Below are positions 3,616-59,753 of a stretch of DNA of 64,000 bases, piece by piece (position 1 is the first letter of the stretch; each line of letters starts with the position of its first letter). This stretch comes from a virus (lineage: Duplodnaviria; Heunggongvirae; Uroviricota; Caudoviricetes; Ackermannviridae): positions 40,721 through 104,720 of IMG/VR virus record IMGVR_UViG_2974499353_000001. The stretch is one strand, 5' to 3'. The notes beneath the pieces were generated by a model. The model did not search any database. It was given only the letters and a program-made list of their open reading frames with translations, and was not told the origin of the DNA. The position numbers and the translations under genes are program-made.

Positions 3616-4117
3616 TATTGTTCTCCAGTTCATAATCCCGTTCTTTAACATATTCATAAAGACGAGAAGTAATTCGGTCGGCATTGCCTGTGGTATTCTT
3701 CACAACCCAACCGCTCGTAAGGACATCCATTTTATATCCACAATCATTATCTTGAAAATAACTTTTAATTGATTCAAGCCGACGACGTTTATGAAAATAT
3801 GGTATTAATTCGCCAATGATGACACAATCGGGATAATGCTTATCCAGAGTGTTTATGTCTCGTTGCACCCAAACCGGAATAACATCATCATCTTCAATTG
3901 GGCTGTACGTTGGATCAACGATAATCACATTGAATCCATAATTCAATAAATCTTTAACTCCCAGCCACCCGAATTTCATATCGGACACGGTCATGGCGAC
4001 ATTCTTTATCCCCAATTTATTTGCAAAATCTGTGAGTAATACAAAAAAGTCCGTGTTTGCATCCGGATAATTAATTGCGAGTTGCTCCCCCACTTTACTG
4101 AAACAGAACGCGTGCAT
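3593..4117 (-). CDS. Hypothetical protein (174 aa)
   Basis: Clean ORF. No motif recognised. Confidence 0.5.
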   Translation of the reverse strand: MHAFCFSKVGEQLAINYPDANTDFFVLLTDFANKLGIKNVAMTVSDMKFGWLGVKDLLNYGFNVIIVDPTYSPIEDDDVIPVWVQRDINTLDKHYPDCVIIGELIPYFHKRRRLESIKSYFQDNDCGYKMDVLTSGWVVKNTTGNADRITSRLYEYVKERDYELENNNAKRRTR

Positions 4118-10101: not shown

Positions 10102-12384
10102 TCAAACAACACAGGTATCACAAATTTCTTCAACTTGTTTCAACTCTTCATCTTCCTTGGAGTCTTTGTTGGTGTTGTAATACAGAGTTTTACCACCCCA
10201 CATGTAGAAAGACAGAATATCCTGCATCATAAGAGAGCGCGGGATCTTGCCTTCTGGATATTTCTCTGGGTCATACCATGTGTTGGTGCTGATAGATTGA
10301 TCTACCCAACGTTGTATGACCGCAACCGTCTTCAGGTATTCAATACAATCCAGATTCCATTTCAGGTCATATAGAGGACCAAGGGTTTCTACATCCGGAA
10401 CGATCTGTTTATAGACGCCGTCCTTGCTGCCTTTGATGCTGATGAGACCTTTTGGTGGCTCTATACCGTTCGTTGCGTTCAGCACCTGAGAGGAGCTTTC
10501 AGTTGGTGCTACGGCTAACAACGTGGCGTTACGGATCCCATACTCGGATAGGTTCTGCTTAAGACCTTCCCAGTCAAGACCATAGGCTTGCCCAACAGGC
10601 TTTTTGCCATTGGGCAGGATGTCTAGTGGGAGAGGCTGAAGGTCTGCTGTCACAAATCCAGAATCATGGATAGTAGACTTCTTACAAGATCCGAAACGCA
10701 TGGCCAGACGGTTGGACGCTTTGACCAAGTAGAAATGAAGATGTGCCATCCAATTGTCTAGAAGTTCTAATCCGACAGGCGATCCATAACCCGTGAAGTT
10801 CTTGGCCAGGAAATGCGCGACGTTGACGATACCGATACCCAGAGGACGATATTCTTCTACAGCCAAACGGGCTTGGCGAGCTGGGTAGTCCTGATATTCC
10901 AACAACATATCCAAAGCTGAAACCAGAACGAAAGCAACATCTTCCATTTCTGTTGGATCTTCAAACGCCGTCAGGTTAAATGATGCGAGTGTACACAGGG
11001 CAATGCGACCATCTTCATCATCATACTGTTGGAACTCACGAGTTGGGAGCGCGATTTCTAAACATAGATTAGAGCTATAAATCGTGTCCAGATTGAACGG
11101 ACTATACTCGTTCATGTGATCAACGAATGCGATGTAGATCCGGCCAGTGTCAGAACGCTGATCTAGTAGCATTTGGAACACTTCTTCAGCTTGCAGCTTT
11201 TTGGAACGACATAATCCGGCGTCGGCGGCCTTGATCATATTGTCGTACATTTCGCGGAATTTATTGACGTCTGCGAAAAATGCTTCATACATTTCGCGGT
11301 TGTCTTTTGGATCAAACAGGTATAGAGGCTGTTTGTTCACCAGGCGCTCGAACATGACGCGGTTAATCTGAATCCCATAGTCGATACGGCGTTCACGGTT
11401 CTCTTCCAATCCACGGTTGTTTTTGAGAACAACGACATCATCAAATTGATAATGCCAGATGGGAACATAGCATGTCGCCGATCCACCACGGATACCACCT
11501 TGAGAGCAAGACTTCAGGGCACCAGTCAAATACTTGATGAATGGAACCAGACCTGTATGGACCATTTCCCCTTTACGGATAGGGCTACCGATGCCACGAA
11601 TTGCCCCAACATCGAATCCGATGCCAGCACGTTTGGAAACATAATCCACGATGCTTTTCGCAGTGGCATTAATTGAGTCCAATGTATCACCAGTTTTGAT
11701 CAACACACAAGAGCTGAACTGTCGGGTCGGTGTCCGGACACCGGACATAATAGGTGTTGGAAGACTGAATTTGCCTGTACTGGCGTATTCATAGAACTTC
11801 TTCACCATTGTCAGTCTGCTTTCTTTATCCCACGCTGAGAATAATGCCATAGCGATTGCCATGTACATGACTTGAGGGGTTTCATAATACACTTTGCTGT
11901 CAGAAGAACGATCGCGCAAAAGATATTTTTGCGTGAGCTGGCCCATAGCCGCCCAAGTAAAATTCTTGTCGCGTTTGTGGTTGATGACTGTGTTAAGTTC
12001 TTCGAATTCTTCTTTAGAGTAAAGTTCGAGGAATTCGCGGTCATAAACACCCAGCTTGGTGTTCTTTGCAAAGATATCCAGCAAATGAGGTGGCTTGTAC
12101 TGACCATAGACAACCTTGCGCAGGTCATACGACTTCAGGCGGGCAGCAACATATTGATAGTTGGGTTTATCAACAGAAATTAAGGTGGCCGCAGCTTGGA
12201 TAATGATATCCTGAATGCGTTCGGTTTTCATGTTATCGGTGAATTGGATCTTCGATGCAGCTTCCACCTCAGACACCGATACTCCTTCAAGGCCGTCGCA
12301 TGCTCGTTCAATAACGGTATGGAGTTTTTCAATGTCAAAGGGGACAGAAGATCCGTCCCGCTTTATGATGTTGATTTCATTCAT
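10102..12384 (-). CDS. nrdA: Ribonucleotide reductase class Ia large subunit NrdA
   Basis: N-terminal ATP cone, catalytic NLCLEIALP (the NxCxE motif) and C-terminal CxxC redox tail (CDTCVV). 760 aa. Confidence 0.9.
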   Translation of the reverse strand: MNEINIIKRDGSSVPFDIEKLHTVIERACDGLEGVSVSEVEAASKIQFTDNMKTERIQDIIIQAAATLISVDKPNYQYVAARLKSYDLRKVVYGQYKPPHLLDIFAKNTKLGVYDREFLELYSKEEFEELNTVINHKRDKNFTWAAMGQLTQKYLLRDRSSDSKVYYETPQVMYMAIAMALFSAWDKESRLTMVKKFYEYASTGKFSLPTPIMSGVRTPTRQFSSCVLIKTGDTLDSINATAKSIVDYVSKRAGIGFDVGAIRGIGSPIRKGEMVHTGLVPFIKYLTGALKSCSQGGIRGGSATCYVPIWHYQFDDVVVLKNNRGLEENRERRIDYGIQINRVMFERLVNKQPLYLFDPKDNREMYEAFFADVNKFREMYDNMIKAADAGLCRSKKLQAEEVFQMLLDQRSDTGRIYIAFVDHMNEYSPFNLDTIYSSNLCLEIALPTREFQQYDDEDGRIALCTLASFNLTAFEDPTEMEDVAFVLVSALDMLLEYQDYPARQARLAVEEYRPLGIGIVNVAHFLAKNFTGYGSPVGLELLDNWMAHLHFYLVKASNRLAMRFGSCKKSTIHDSGFVTADLQPLPLDILPNGKKPVGQAYGLDWEGLKQNLSEYGIRNATLLAVAPTESSSQVLNATNGIEPPKGLISIKGSKDGVYKQIVPDVETLGPLYDLKWNLDCIEYLKTVAVIQRWVDQSISTNTWYDPEKYPEGKIPRSLMMQDILSFYMWGGKTLYYNTNKDSKEDEELKQVEEICDTCVV

Positions 12385-12428
12385 TTCAATTTCCTGTTGG
12401 TTTGATAAGCGTTACTACACAGATACTT

Positions 12429-13088
12429 CTAGAGATTAAAGAAATTAACCCAATCTGGGTCTTCTTTTGGTATCCAACCGGTTTTAAATTTTTTGACCAT
12501 TGTTTCATGTGGCGTGGTTTTATTAGAGAAACCGAAATGTTTAGCCATGACGGTATATCCTGTTTGGTTTATTTTCCACCACTCATAATATACATCAGCC
12601 ATCTTCCATATCTCTAATGATACTTCGGTCGCTTTATTACTTTTCCATGGAGGTTGTATAGTGAATATACCGTTTTCCTTTAAACGTTCTGATTGAGCCT
12701 TTCTTAATCCTGGATTTTCTTCGTGGGTCCTTTTCATTCTTTCAGATCTTATTTTTCTAAGATTTGGTTTGTCTACATACATTTGCCTGTTGGATTCTGA
12801 TAACCTACGGCGTAGCCAGCCAAATAATTTATTACAAGACCTACCCGAAAACTCGTTGTTGATACACATGGCATTAGCAGCAAATGCTAATTTGAAATTG
12901 TTTGGATATATCTTGACCAACAATTGGTGTACCAGATAATGTTCTTCTGGAGTTAATTCTACCAAATTATCCTTATCGTTCTTACCACCCATGCATCTGG
13001 GTATAATATGGTGTGTCTCGGTATAACCAAGAAATGAACGTTTCCTGGCTCTTTCTATCAAAGAGTCATGTATTTTTCGGTAATTCAT
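12429..13088 (-). CDS. Free-standing HNH homing endonuclease (Mob-like)
   Basis: HNH motif ETHHIIPRCMGGKNDKDNLVELTPEEHYLVH. C-terminal DNA-binding region is homologous to the C-terminus of the GIY-YIG enzyme at 57700..58347. Has its own TATAAT and SD. Confidence 0.8.
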   Translation of the reverse strand: MNYRKIHDSLIERARKRSFLGYTETHHIIPRCMGGKNDKDNLVELTPEEHYLVHQLLVKIYPNNFKLAFAANAMCINNEFSGRSCNKLFGWLRRRLSESNRQMYVDKPNLRKIRSERMKRTHEENPGLRKAQSERLKENGIFTIQPPWKSNKATEVSLEIWKMADVYYEWWKINQTGYTVMAKHFGFSNKTTPHETMVKKFKTGWIPKEDPDWVNFFNL

Positions 13089-13154
13089 ACCTATCTCATA
13101 AAATTATAAAGCCGCCTCCATGGATTGAAGGCGACGGGGAAGTTCGTGTGGTAT

Positions 13155-14030
13155 TTAAATGTTGTACAGGTCGTTAATTTCTAGCATCAGGCGGGTGAAG
13201 TTACCGCGTCCATTACGATCAGACTTATCGAATTCGATGATGCTGAATGGTTGAACCCACTCTGGATATTCATCCCCGATTTCTACACCGTCAATTTGCA
13301 AGGAACCTGTTTCCAGCTTGTTGTTGAAGTCTTTAAAAGAATCCACATACGTCTGTAACGCACTATCACGCAGTCGCTTGTTAGACTGTTTGATATCTCC
13401 ATTCACGAAGATGTACGAAGAATCTGAAGCACGAGTCAACAAGTTTTTCAGCTGCTCCATATCGCATTCCTGCGCCTCTTCGATAATCAGGAAACAATCA
13501 TCGAAGGTCATTCCCTTTACAGTTTCAAGGTCTTGAATTTCTATGATGCGTTTCTCCCACAGATAGTTGAAGAAACCGTCGGAACCCGTATCTGTTTTGA
13601 GAACCTTTTTGAATGTCTGTATGAGCGGCATCAAATAAGGCATCAGCTTTTCATACGTGTCACCAGGCCGGAACCCCGCTGTGGTTCCGGTCGGTAAAGG
13701 AGAACGCGTGATGATAATCTTGTTGATGGTTTTGTCAATCAGATGTTTTGCTGCAGCAGATGCACCACAATAGGATTTGCCTGTACCTGCCGGACCGATA
13801 GCGATAGTGAGGTGTTCGTTTAATGCGGATTGATATGCGAGGTTCTGATTTTCTGAGAGGCCATTGAACGGAGCAATTTTGAAATCACCTTTAGAAAATT
13901 TCATCCAGTCTTCTTCCTTCTGGATGGTGTCTTTCTTACGAGCAGATTTTGTCTTCGCTGGCTTCATGGATACAACTTTAGACGCAGATTGCATGTTGAA
14001 CCTTCCTATATCTACAGGGGTTGTCGACAC
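13155..14030 (-). CDS. phoH: PhoH-like ATPase
   Basis: Walker A motif AIGPAGTGKSY, Walker B motif FLIIEEAQ, PhoH-family length. Confidence 0.85.
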   Translation of the reverse strand: MSTTPVDIGRFNMQSASKVVSMKPAKTKSARKKDTIQKEEDWMKFSKGDFKIAPFNGLSENQNLAYQSALNEHLTIAIGPAGTGKSYCGASAAAKHLIDKTINKIIITRSPLPTGTTAGFRPGDTYEKLMPYLMPLIQTFKKVLKTDTGSDGFFNYLWEKRIIEIQDLETVKGMTFDDCFLIIEEAQECDMEQLKNLLTRASDSSYIFVNGDIKQSNKRLRDSALQTYVDSFKDFNNKLETGSLQIDGVEIGDEYPEWVQPFSIIEFDKSDRNGRGNFTRLMLEINDLYNI

Positions 14031-40568: not shown

Positions 40569-40737
40569 CGTTTTGACCTTTTTGGGCTTTGGAGTGTTTG
40601 GAGTTCGCGTCGGCGTTCTCCAGCATAGTTTCAATGAAATCCCGGTTGTTTTCCATTTGGGCGACCAGAACATCACTGGGACGGAATGAATTGTCAAGAC
40701 AATCAAGTCCGGCGCGTTTTAATTTGTTGTCGGTCAT
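40561..40737 (-). CDS. Small acidic protein (about 58 aa), translationally coupled to the vWA gene
   Basis: ATG with SD GAGAG. The track start is a TTG. Confidence 0.4.
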   Translation of the reverse strand: MTDNKLKRAGLDCLDNSFRPSDVLVAQMENNRDFIETMLENADANSKHSKAQKGQNDD

Positions 40738-57639: not shown

Positions 57640-57699
57640 GATGTAGTTCTCTCAGTGATAGACCATATCATAATAGCACTGAGGACTGATAAAGAAAAA

Positions 57700-58347
57700 C
57701 TACATGAAATCTTTTACCCATTCAGAGTCTTCCATAGGAACCCAATTTTCGTATTTGAACATTTTGTACATGTTATAGAATACTCGAATATTATTCCCGT
57801 CGTTCATACGGTTACAAAATCGTTCATGCCCCCAACCTTCATTCTTCCATAATTGATAGAATTGGTCAGCCATAGCCCAAACGTGTTGTAATGGTTTGGC
57901 TCTAGGTCGATTCCATATCCTCACGCTTGCTTGATATTTGATCTGGGCTTGCCGTGATGTTTCCGAAAATCCAATTGGTTTGTTCTTTCCTCTTGTTACG
58001 TTAGACAAATGCGCCTTTGCTTCTTCACTGAGTGGCCCAGTCCTTCCAAAATAAACGAGGGAACCATCTTTCTTAACATGGAAACGATTTAAACAAAGAG
58101 GATTGGTGTGAACGGATTCGATCAATTGCGCTTCAACTTGGAGGGCTTCCTCTCCATCCTGACATAGCATTATTACTTCATGGGTGAAGTAATCTGGCCC
58201 ATGTTGTGATATAAGGGATTGGACGACTTTCGAGGACGTGAAATATTTTACCCAAAGTTCTTTGGGGTGACAGTTCTTTGCGTGACGGCATCCATAATAG
58301 ATGTGCCCATCTTTTGATTCTATTTTGTAAACGTATGGTTGGTTCAT
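57700..58347 (-). CDS. GIY-YIG homing endonuclease (Seg-like) downstream of gene 23
   Basis: GIY-YIG core YVYKIESKDGHIYYGCR. The C-terminal module WAMADQFYQLWK...MYKMFKYENWVPMEDSEWVKDF is homologous to the HNH enzyme C-terminus. Confidence 0.8.
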   Translation of the reverse strand: MNQPYVYKIESKDGHIYYGCRHAKNCHPKELWVKYFTSSKVVQSLISQHGPDYFTHEVIMLCQDGEEALQVEAQLIESVHTNPLCLNRFHVKKDGSLVYFGRTGPLSEEAKAHLSNVTRGKNKPIGFSETSRQAQIKYQASVRIWNRPRAKPLQHVWAMADQFYQLWKNEGWGHERFCNRMNDGNNIRVFYNMYKMFKYENWVPMEDSEWVKDFM

Positions 58348-58390
58348 AATTCCCCCTTTCAGGACATTATAACCCCATACTTCTGAAATA

Positions 58391-58413
58391 AAAACCCCGC
58401 CGAAGCGGGGTTT
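58391..58413 (-). terminator. Strong terminator AAACCCCGCCGAAGCGGGGTTT after gene 23
   Basis: Perfect hairpin plus T run. T4 likewise has a strong terminator after gene 23. Confidence 0.7.
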
Positions 58414-58430: not shown

Positions 58431-59753
58431 TTAGAACAGCGACTTTATCAACCCTTTACGGAAGTAAACGTTGCTATCCTGAGCAATACCGTCAGCAGTC
58501 ACGTAAACCTGCGGGTCTTGGTTAGCCGGAATCTGTACGAACGGGTTAGCACAGATGCCGTAACGGGTTTTGAACGCCATACGCGGAGCGAAGGTGGTTT
58601 CACCCTGGGTGCGGTACATTTCCAGCGGCACATACGGCGCGAAGAAGATACCGGCATCCAGCGCAGTTGCGCCTTTGTATGCCAGAGTGATATATTCTGC
58701 TACAGCATACGGGTCAACATAGACGCGCATACCGTTGGACAGAACACCAGCGAAGGTCTGGCCAGTCGGGTCAACAGCCAGTTTAGTGTTTTCCTGCAGA
58801 ACCGGAGCATAGTCCAGCATGCCAGACATCGCCAGAGCGGATGCCACGTTCGGAGAACACAGAACACGGTTGCCTTTACCACGACGGGTGTCAACACCGA
58901 TACCGTTCGCTTCGACTTCCAGCATGAAAGTCAGGAACTTCCATTTTTCCAGCGCCCAACGACCAGAGATGTCCTGCGCGATATCAACAACACCGTTGGT
59001 GCCGAATTTTTTGAAGCGAACAGCACTGAAGTTCATGGTACGGATGAATTCACGGTTCATTTCCGCCTGAATTTCAGTTACCATCACGTCAGACAGGATA
59101 TTGTCCACGTCTTCGCCGTGAATTGCCATCATGTCCTGACGCAGTTCATGGCTGTAATCAGCGTACAGGCCGCGAGACTTGGCAGTAACGGTCGCTTTCT
59201 GAACAGTGATACCAACACGCGCCCAAGGGTTGGTGGTAGTACCCAGCAGTTCAGCGTCACTTGACGGCATACCTTTACCGATAGTGGTCACGCCAGAGCC
59301 GGAACCTTCGATCTCAGCCTGACTAAAGCCAGACGGGTCGCCAGCCTGTACAGTACCATCACCGGAATAGCCGGAATCGGCTTCCTGCATGAACAGTTCT
59401 TTACGAGACTGTGCGGTGTTGGAACTGTCACCAACGCCCTGGCGAGCGCGCAGTGCAAAGATCTGACCGTCAGGACCAGACAGCGGCTGAACACCGAAGA
59501 AGTCCATCGCGATGTTGATCGGCGCCAGACGTTTTGCCATGTCGATCAGAACTGGCTGCCATTTACCGACAGTGCTGTTCACAGAACCAGGTGCGTCAGA
59601 TTCGCCCAGGTTTTTTGCGTTCCATTCAGCCTGGTTCTGCATCAGACGGATGGTTACGTTTTCGGCAGACAGAGGTTGAATAGCTTCAGATTCTTTTTGG
59701 AGAACTGGCAGCCACTGTTTGCGCATTTCTTCGGTTACAAGTTTCTTAGTCAT
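58431..59753 (-). CDS. 23: Major capsid protein gp23
   Basis: APINIAMDFFGVQPLSGPDGQIFALRAR versus T4 IPNLIAFDICGVQPMNSPTGQVFALRA. Also C-terminal similarity (MRVYVDPYA, FKTRYGI). Confidence 0.9.
   Translation of the reverse strand: MTKKLVTEEMRKQWLPVLQKESEAIQPLSAENVTIRLMQNQAEWNAKNLGESDAPGSVNSTVGKWQPVLIDMAKRLAPINIAMDFFGVQPLSGPDGQIFALRARQGVGDSSNTAQSRKELFMQEADSGYSGDGTVQAGDPSGFSQAEIEGSGSGVTTIGKGMPSSDAELLGTTTNPWARVGITVQKATVTAKSRGLYADYSHELRQDMMAIHGEDVDNILSDVMVTEIQAEMNREFIRTMNFSAVRFKKFGTNGVVDIAQDISGRWALEKWKFLTFMLEVEANGIGVDTRRGKGNRVLCSPNVASALAMSGMLDYAPVLQENTKLAVDPTGQTFAGVLSNGMRVYVDPYAVAEYITLAYKGATALDAGIFFAPYVPLEMYRTQGETTFAPRMAFKTRYGICANPFVQIPANQDPQVYVTADGIAQDSNVYFRKGLIKSLF

Follow-up and report, generated by a model that had tools for sequence, protein, structure and literature searches.

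The DNA stretch analyzed here (the window; 64,000 nucleotides, positions 40,721 to 104,720 of IMG/VR record IMGVR_UViG_2974499353_000001) originates from a Salmonella phage of the genus Kuttervirus (Ackermannviridae). It carries two free-standing homing endonuclease genes, one for a GIY-YIG enzyme and one for a T4 Mob-type HNH enzyme, whose products end in the same type of C-terminal module (Table 1). The HNH partner was located by a six-frame motif search. Both loci are 100% identical to those of the Salmonella phages S115, S118 and rabagast; the identical GIY-YIG protein occurs in these three phages as well as in GG32 and STP07, where it is annotated as a GIY-YIG homing endonuclease. Among the related records, Det7 and PM10, for example, are assigned to the genus Kuttervirus of the Ackermannviridae.

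Table 1. Positions of the two endonuclease genes, their protein domains and their surroundings in the window.
Feature	Position	Strand	Remarks
GIY-YIG free-standing homing endonuclease gene, 215 residues	57700..58347	-	open reading frame; phrog_314 "homing endonuclease" E=3.5e-32; Pfam SegE_GIY-YIG E=5.3e-5
GIY-YIG catalytic core, residues 1-90	58078..58347	-	conserved motifs; AlphaFold strand-strand-helix-strand-helix, predicted local distance difference test (pLDDT) ~75-86
Linker, residues 91-136, flexible and with a single NUMOD3-like helix pair	57940..58077	-	pLDDT <50 at 91-105; helices 108-118 and 127-141
C-terminal shared module of the GIY-YIG protein, residues 137-215	57703..57939	-	module profile E=4.8e-24; BLASTP E=4e-8 to the HNH tail
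Extent of the GIY-YIG cassette as judged against Det7 (without cassette)	57654..58385	.	homology ends at 57653, resumes at 58386
Hairpin resembling a terminator, behind the major capsid gene	58392..58413	-	GIY-YIG cassette begins right after the T-run of the hairpin
gp23-like major capsid gene	58431-59753	-	GIY-YIG gene directly after it, same strand
HNH (T4 Mob-type) free-standing homing endonuclease gene, 219 residues	12429..13088	-	phrog_655 E=9.6e-64; Pfam HNH E=4.2e-4
HNH catalytic core, residues 1-95	12804..13088	-	motif ETHHIIPRCMGG..DN.V.LT.EEH...H
C-terminal shared module of the HNH protein, residues 140-219	12432..12671	-	module profile E=4e-32; phrog_26163 E=2.7e-28 over residues 130-218
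Extent of the HNH cassette as judged against PM10 (without cassette)	12376..13102	.	727 base pairs here, 36 base pairs in PM10
phoH	13155-14030		flanks the HNH gene
nrdA	10102-12384		flanks the HNH gene on the other side

A common C-terminal module on two nuclease cores

The initial annotation had proposed that the C-terminal 60 residues of the GIY-YIG protein align with the C-terminus of the HNH protein. A BLASTP comparison with compositional adjustment bears this out, as residues 156-214 of the GIY-YIG protein align with residues 160-217 of the HNH protein (34% identity over 59 amino acids, one gap), and the similarity is significant after correction for composition (E=4e-8). If all 488 stop-to-stop open reading frames of the window are searched with phmmer, each endonuclease finds its counterpart (E=3e-8 to 1e-7), and no further copy of the module is found among them (next match E ~0.2-1). 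The tails reach a Smith-Waterman score of 104, where shuffling them 5000 times with their composition preserved gives 27.7±5.0 and at most 60 (z=15, Gumbel P ~3e-9), and the N-terminal halves of the two proteins score 31, which corresponds to the background. By these alignments the two C-termini are homologous. The similarity begins approximately 15 residues before the start originally given, at a conserved tryptophan (WNRPRA and WKSNKA, respectively), so that the proposed homology stands while its length has to be extended from 60 to about 75-80 residues. A module match to the open reading frame at 348-1379 (E=0.011) was rejected, as it splits into three poor fragments; judged by eye from its sequence only, this frame resembles a T4 gp32-type single-strand DNA-binding protein.

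It was likewise confirmed that one module is joined to two nuclease folds that are unrelated to each other. The 215-residue protein possesses the catalytic motifs of the GIY-YIG family (two tyrosine motifs together with an arginine, a glutamate and an asparagine), and in the GIY-YIG alignment A4 the residues Y7, Y17, G19, R21, E72 and N87 vary hardly or not at all. Its Pfam match reaches 23.9 bits, slightly under the cut-off of 25, and the T4 proteins closest to the 215-residue protein are I-TevII, SegA and SegB (E ~1e-7). The core of the HNH protein retrieves T4 MobB (E=5e-28), MobE (7e-26) and MobC (1.4e-15) with phmmer; matches to T4 MobA-E are restricted to residues 1-95, and the Pfam HNH match scores 20.8 bits against a cut-off of 21.4.

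In the AlphaFold model of the full-length GIY-YIG protein the head (1-90) and the tail (148-214) are predicted with confidence and residues 91-105 are disordered; the predicted template modelling score of 0.41 is what would be expected for tethered domains. The second linker helix extends a few residues into the module part. The NUMOD3 match in this linker lies below threshold (E=0.012-0.032, 14.6-15.9 bits, cut-off 20.4), and Pfam finds no NUMOD3 match in the linker of the HNH protein; among 144 representatives of the module family NUMOD3 is matched by 37. Compared to its 281-residue relatives from other Ackermannviridae (P0124-P0129, alignment A4) the GIY-YIG protein is approximately 66 residues shorter in the NUMOD3-like linker, a short form that is also found in P0123 and P0130. 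The missing residues could shorten the reach of the enzyme or impair it.

Both window proteins fit the module profile, with the conserved pattern W...W..AD..Y..W...F+.GW.P..D..W. An alignment of 48 sequences (A2) displays W, W, A, W, F and G-W-x-P-x-x-D-x-x-W as invariant or nearly invariant. The isolated module of the GIY-YIG protein is predicted by AlphaFold as a compact bundle of five helices (pLDDT 91.5). Three PHROGs cover the module, namely phrog_26163, phrog_25551 and phrog_7504, and it matches nothing in Pfam, NCBIfam or the sequences of the PDB. Foldseek yields nothing significant in the PDB, and its matches among the viral models of BFVD are tails of phage homing endonucleases only, including a SegG-type protein and T4 gp60.1. 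The module gives no Pfam match to NUMOD1-4, I-TevI_DNA-bd or I-HmuI_NUMOD-like at E<=10, and hhalign assigns a probability of 0.5% to a comparison with a set of tails verified by Pfam as NUMOD1, I-TevI_DNA-bd or I-HmuI_NUMOD-like; membership in NUMOD1 was rejected on these grounds. Because of these negative results the module is a distinct family, which occupies the same position as the NUMOD1 helix-turn-helix of I-TevI-type enzymes. The label "NUMOD-like" given in the initial annotation can be kept for role and position and has to be dropped for the sequence.

Architectures of the module family and mobility of the two genes

An index-free profile search found 628 cluster representatives that carry the module (E<=1e-3); a word-indexed search with the alignment of the two module sequences had given a single fragment of 58 residues. 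Architectures were counted in the top 150 of the 628 representatives. An HNH core is followed by one module in 40 of them and by two to three modules in 6, a GIY-YIG core by one module in 32 and by two to four modules in 12, and 60 have a head that was unrecognised by the first-pass profiles. A Pfam census of the 144 representatives gave only 15 HNH and 17 GIY-YIG heads, which is an under-call, and heads were therefore classified by local iterative profiles and by direct reading of the sequences. Read in this way, the unrecognised sequences include further GIY-YIG subfamilies, an I-HmuI-like HNH core, a variant His-Me-like core, fragments and two fusions to metallophosphoesterases.

Several individual members deserve mention. 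A third N-terminal type is present in P0157, P0174, P0180, P0188, P0197 and others and carries the motif YQLARYKDLGGYT.DNCRFIT..EN; by its sequence it resembles a His-Me/HNH variant that lacks the customary histidines, and Pfam gave it no assignment. Four tandem modules stand behind the GIY-YIG head of P0134 (507 residues), and two each are found in P0104 (274 residues, HNH) and P0179 (277 residues, GIY-YIG). In two metagenomic proteins the partner is a phosphoesterase: P0229 (305 residues) possesses an N-terminal module fused to a calcineurin-like metallophosphoesterase, and P0168 (443 residues) has the order GIY-YIG, module, phosphoesterase. A metallophosphoesterase is an unexpected partner for the tail of a homing endonuclease.

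Both nuclease cores of the window also occur with other tails, the HNH core with a NUMOD1 tail (P0096 and P0098) and the GIY-YIG core with an I-TevI_DNA-bd tail (P0131). The shuffling of heads and tails is therefore real and recurrent. When 155 modules are placed on a neighbour-joining tree, 35 changes of head type are needed by parsimony; with permuted labels the mean is 50 and the lowest value 42. The tree is weak and the count rough, and it points to some lineage signal together with a heavy interleaving of head types. Elsewhere in the family pairs of modules from different head types reach 58% identity.

Both genes are present in some and absent from other collinear relatives and lie beside conserved genes, which marks them as free-standing homing-endonuclease cassettes. 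Det7 is 97-99% identical on both sides of the GIY-YIG cassette and contains, in place of its 732 base pairs, 1155 base pairs with four small open reading frames (L007:1055-2209). The flanks alone are matched in most of 286 related records. Because relatives carry other small reading frames in this slot, the GIY-YIG cassette is a replacement and not a simple insertion. It brings its own strong ribosome-binding site (GGGGGA, 5 nucleotides before the ATG). The slot behind the major capsid gene forms a variable region, in which relatives (Det7; STP-4, L008) have two to four small hypothetical reading frames. The left break of the HNH cassette falls inside the first codons of nrdA (12376-12384). 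The N-terminus of NrdA reads MNEINIIKR in the window and MINIIKR in PM10, a difference that may reflect a footprint of the endonuclease target or a change in immunity. Both genes are mobile cassettes, and for the GIY-YIG enzyme the presence or absence of the cassette with sharp borders lends indirect support to a putative site-specific cleavage and homing activity.

Proposed function and alternative explanations

Each of the two cassettes encodes a nuclease head that a flexible basic linker, with helices resembling NUMOD3, joins to the homologous five-helix module, a member of a large family of tails that has been recombined repeatedly with different heads. Taken together, the observations make it likely that the cassettes arrived separately and that the module serves as a sequence-reading anchor. 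It would recognise a site within or next to the conserved neighbour gene in a related phage without the cassette. The head, held on its tether, would nick or cut at a distance given by the linker, and in co-infected cells the cassette would be copied in through recombinational repair. That the module binds DNA is suggested by its position, by the tandem arrays, weakly by its structure, and by a mean net charge of +3.4.

The module might alternatively be a protein-interaction or regulatory domain which docks on a replication or recombination protein of phage or host, or autoinhibits the nuclease, leaving target recognition to the NUMOD3-like linker and the head. This explanation could draw on the lack of a significant match of the module to any solved DNA-binding domain, on its conserved positions, where tryptophans prevail together with an acidic P-x-x-D motif instead of basic residues, and on its fusion to metallophosphoesterase. 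We consider it unlikely, and an anchor that reads DNA is preferred.

The initial annotation had read the common tail as domain shuffling within a single genome; taken literally, this would be a recent recombination by which one endonuclease received a copy of the other's tail. Both genes do lie in one genome, and the phage family is rich in such genes (PMC3296691). The two modules are however only ~30-34% identical (~30% between the two copies), and many closer relatives of the other head type exist in other phages, so that the window pair ranks mid-table among cross-type relatives (80th of 176 and 54th of 99, respectively). Other genera moreover contain orthologues of both proteins over their whole length, tail included. 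Exchange inside this genome was rejected for these reasons and is very improbable; shuffling as such remains, as a recurrent process across the relatives, and nothing indicates that the two copies came other than separately with their cassettes. A resemblance by chance, or by the biased composition of tails rich in tryptophan and lysine, might be suspected for a region that is short and 34% identical. It can be practically dismissed in view of the composition-adjusted E-value, of the phmmer result, of the shuffles, none of which (0 of 5000) reaches the observed score, of the profile matches of both proteins (E=4e-32 and 5e-24) and of the confident fold prediction.

Since the NUMOD work of 2003 it has been known that homing endonucleases of the HNH and GIY-YIG types have modular DNA-binding tails in common. 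The present case is therefore a real but ordinary example of known domain mixing, in which the principle is established and the specific module is uncatalogued, and it does not change the accepted view of how such elements work. It does provide a clean worked example of phage homing endonucleases assembled from interchangeable heads and tails. The tail family is now defined, and it is absent from the domain databases (Pfam, NCBIfam) even though it is borne by the classic T4 SegG. A curated profile of the module would improve the annotation of hundreds of "hypothetical" phage proteins, and the module itself is a defined fragment for experimental tests of target recognition. It is quite possible, if slightly short of an even chance, that the tail represents an undescribed NUMOD-class DNA-recognition domain, rich in tryptophan, with five helices in ~80 residues, which is swapped freely among at least three nuclease cores and stacked in arrays of as many as four copies, every one of which would recognise a sub-site of its own. 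If so, it would be a compact and possibly re-targetable DNA-reading unit, and it would account for the choice of target by SegG and by KVP40-type MobE.

Comparison with known homing endonucleases

Phage HNH and GIY-YIG enzymes have been described as nuclease heads followed by DNA-binding modules like beads on a string (PMC2988022, PMC3943268, PMC1564403). The pair of I-TevI (GIY-YIG) and I-HmuI (HNH) resembles the window pair in possessing a head, a flexible linker and small modules common to unrelated nuclease folds (same references). The window module differs from the elements of this NUMOD paradigm by its size (five helices over ~80 residues), and is not NUMOD1, NUMOD3, NUMOD4, I-TevI_DNA-bd or I-HmuI_NUMOD-like. 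It is not named in the literature on phage homing endonucleases cited here, in which the Mob tails are described as protein-specific (PMC2790892). In Table 1 of PMC3296691 several "GIY-YIG" endonucleases of Dickeya phage LIMEstone1 are listed with Mob (HNH) proteins as closest phage homologue; this would fit best matches driven by the common tail, or may reflect errors in the table.

The HNH protein of the window aligns over its full length, module included, with a KVP40-type MobE (phmmer E=1.5e-46). Like the T4 Mob proteins it has a core that matches MobB, MobE, MobD and MobC, and an association with nrd genes as for mobE. The position differs, as mobE lies between nrdA and nrdB and the window gene between phoH and nrdA, and so do the tails: T4 MobE (141 residues) has no module, and T4 MobB and MobC bear NUMOD1-type tails instead.

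The GIY-YIG gene had been placed at a "segD-like position". It does lie behind the major capsid gene, like segD in T4. In T4, however, segD is on the opposite strand to gene 23, whereas the window gene shares the strand of its capsid gene. The tail of T4 SegD is of the NUMOD1/I-TevI type, unlike that of the window protein. Orthology to SegD was rejected because of this orientation and a phmmer E-value of 0.054.

The T4 genome was scanned in six frames with the module profile. SegG carries the module (residues 133-208, E=1.7e-9), and SegA gives a weak match (3e-3). SegA (159-215), MobD (187-219) and the C-terminus of SegF weakly match a part of the module, its first three helices (E 3.9e-5 to 0.09); they lack the GW.P..D..W end. 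This suggests that other Seg and Mob proteins of T4 may have a shorter, related tail. A further weak match concerns T4 gp60.1 (gene 60.1, L003:2971-3351), whose function is unassigned, with a profile E-value of ~1e-3 across all T4 open reading frames and 1e-5 within the endonuclease set, and a query TM-score of 0.62 in BFVD. The gene adjoins a mobA remnant of 37 residues (3654-3767), and gp60.1 may be the orphaned DNA-binding end of a decayed MobA endonuclease.

SegG belongs to another GIY-YIG subfamily, genomic slot and phage family than the window GIY-YIG protein, and its module is only ~30% identical. The gene of phage MX01 that occupies the segG slot bears the module as well. SegG shares with the window protein a GIY-YIG head followed by the same C-terminal module, and both are free-standing beside an essential gene; segG sits between genes 32 and 59. 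Homing and marker exclusion by SegG are experimentally documented (cited in PMC2988022, PMC2330249).
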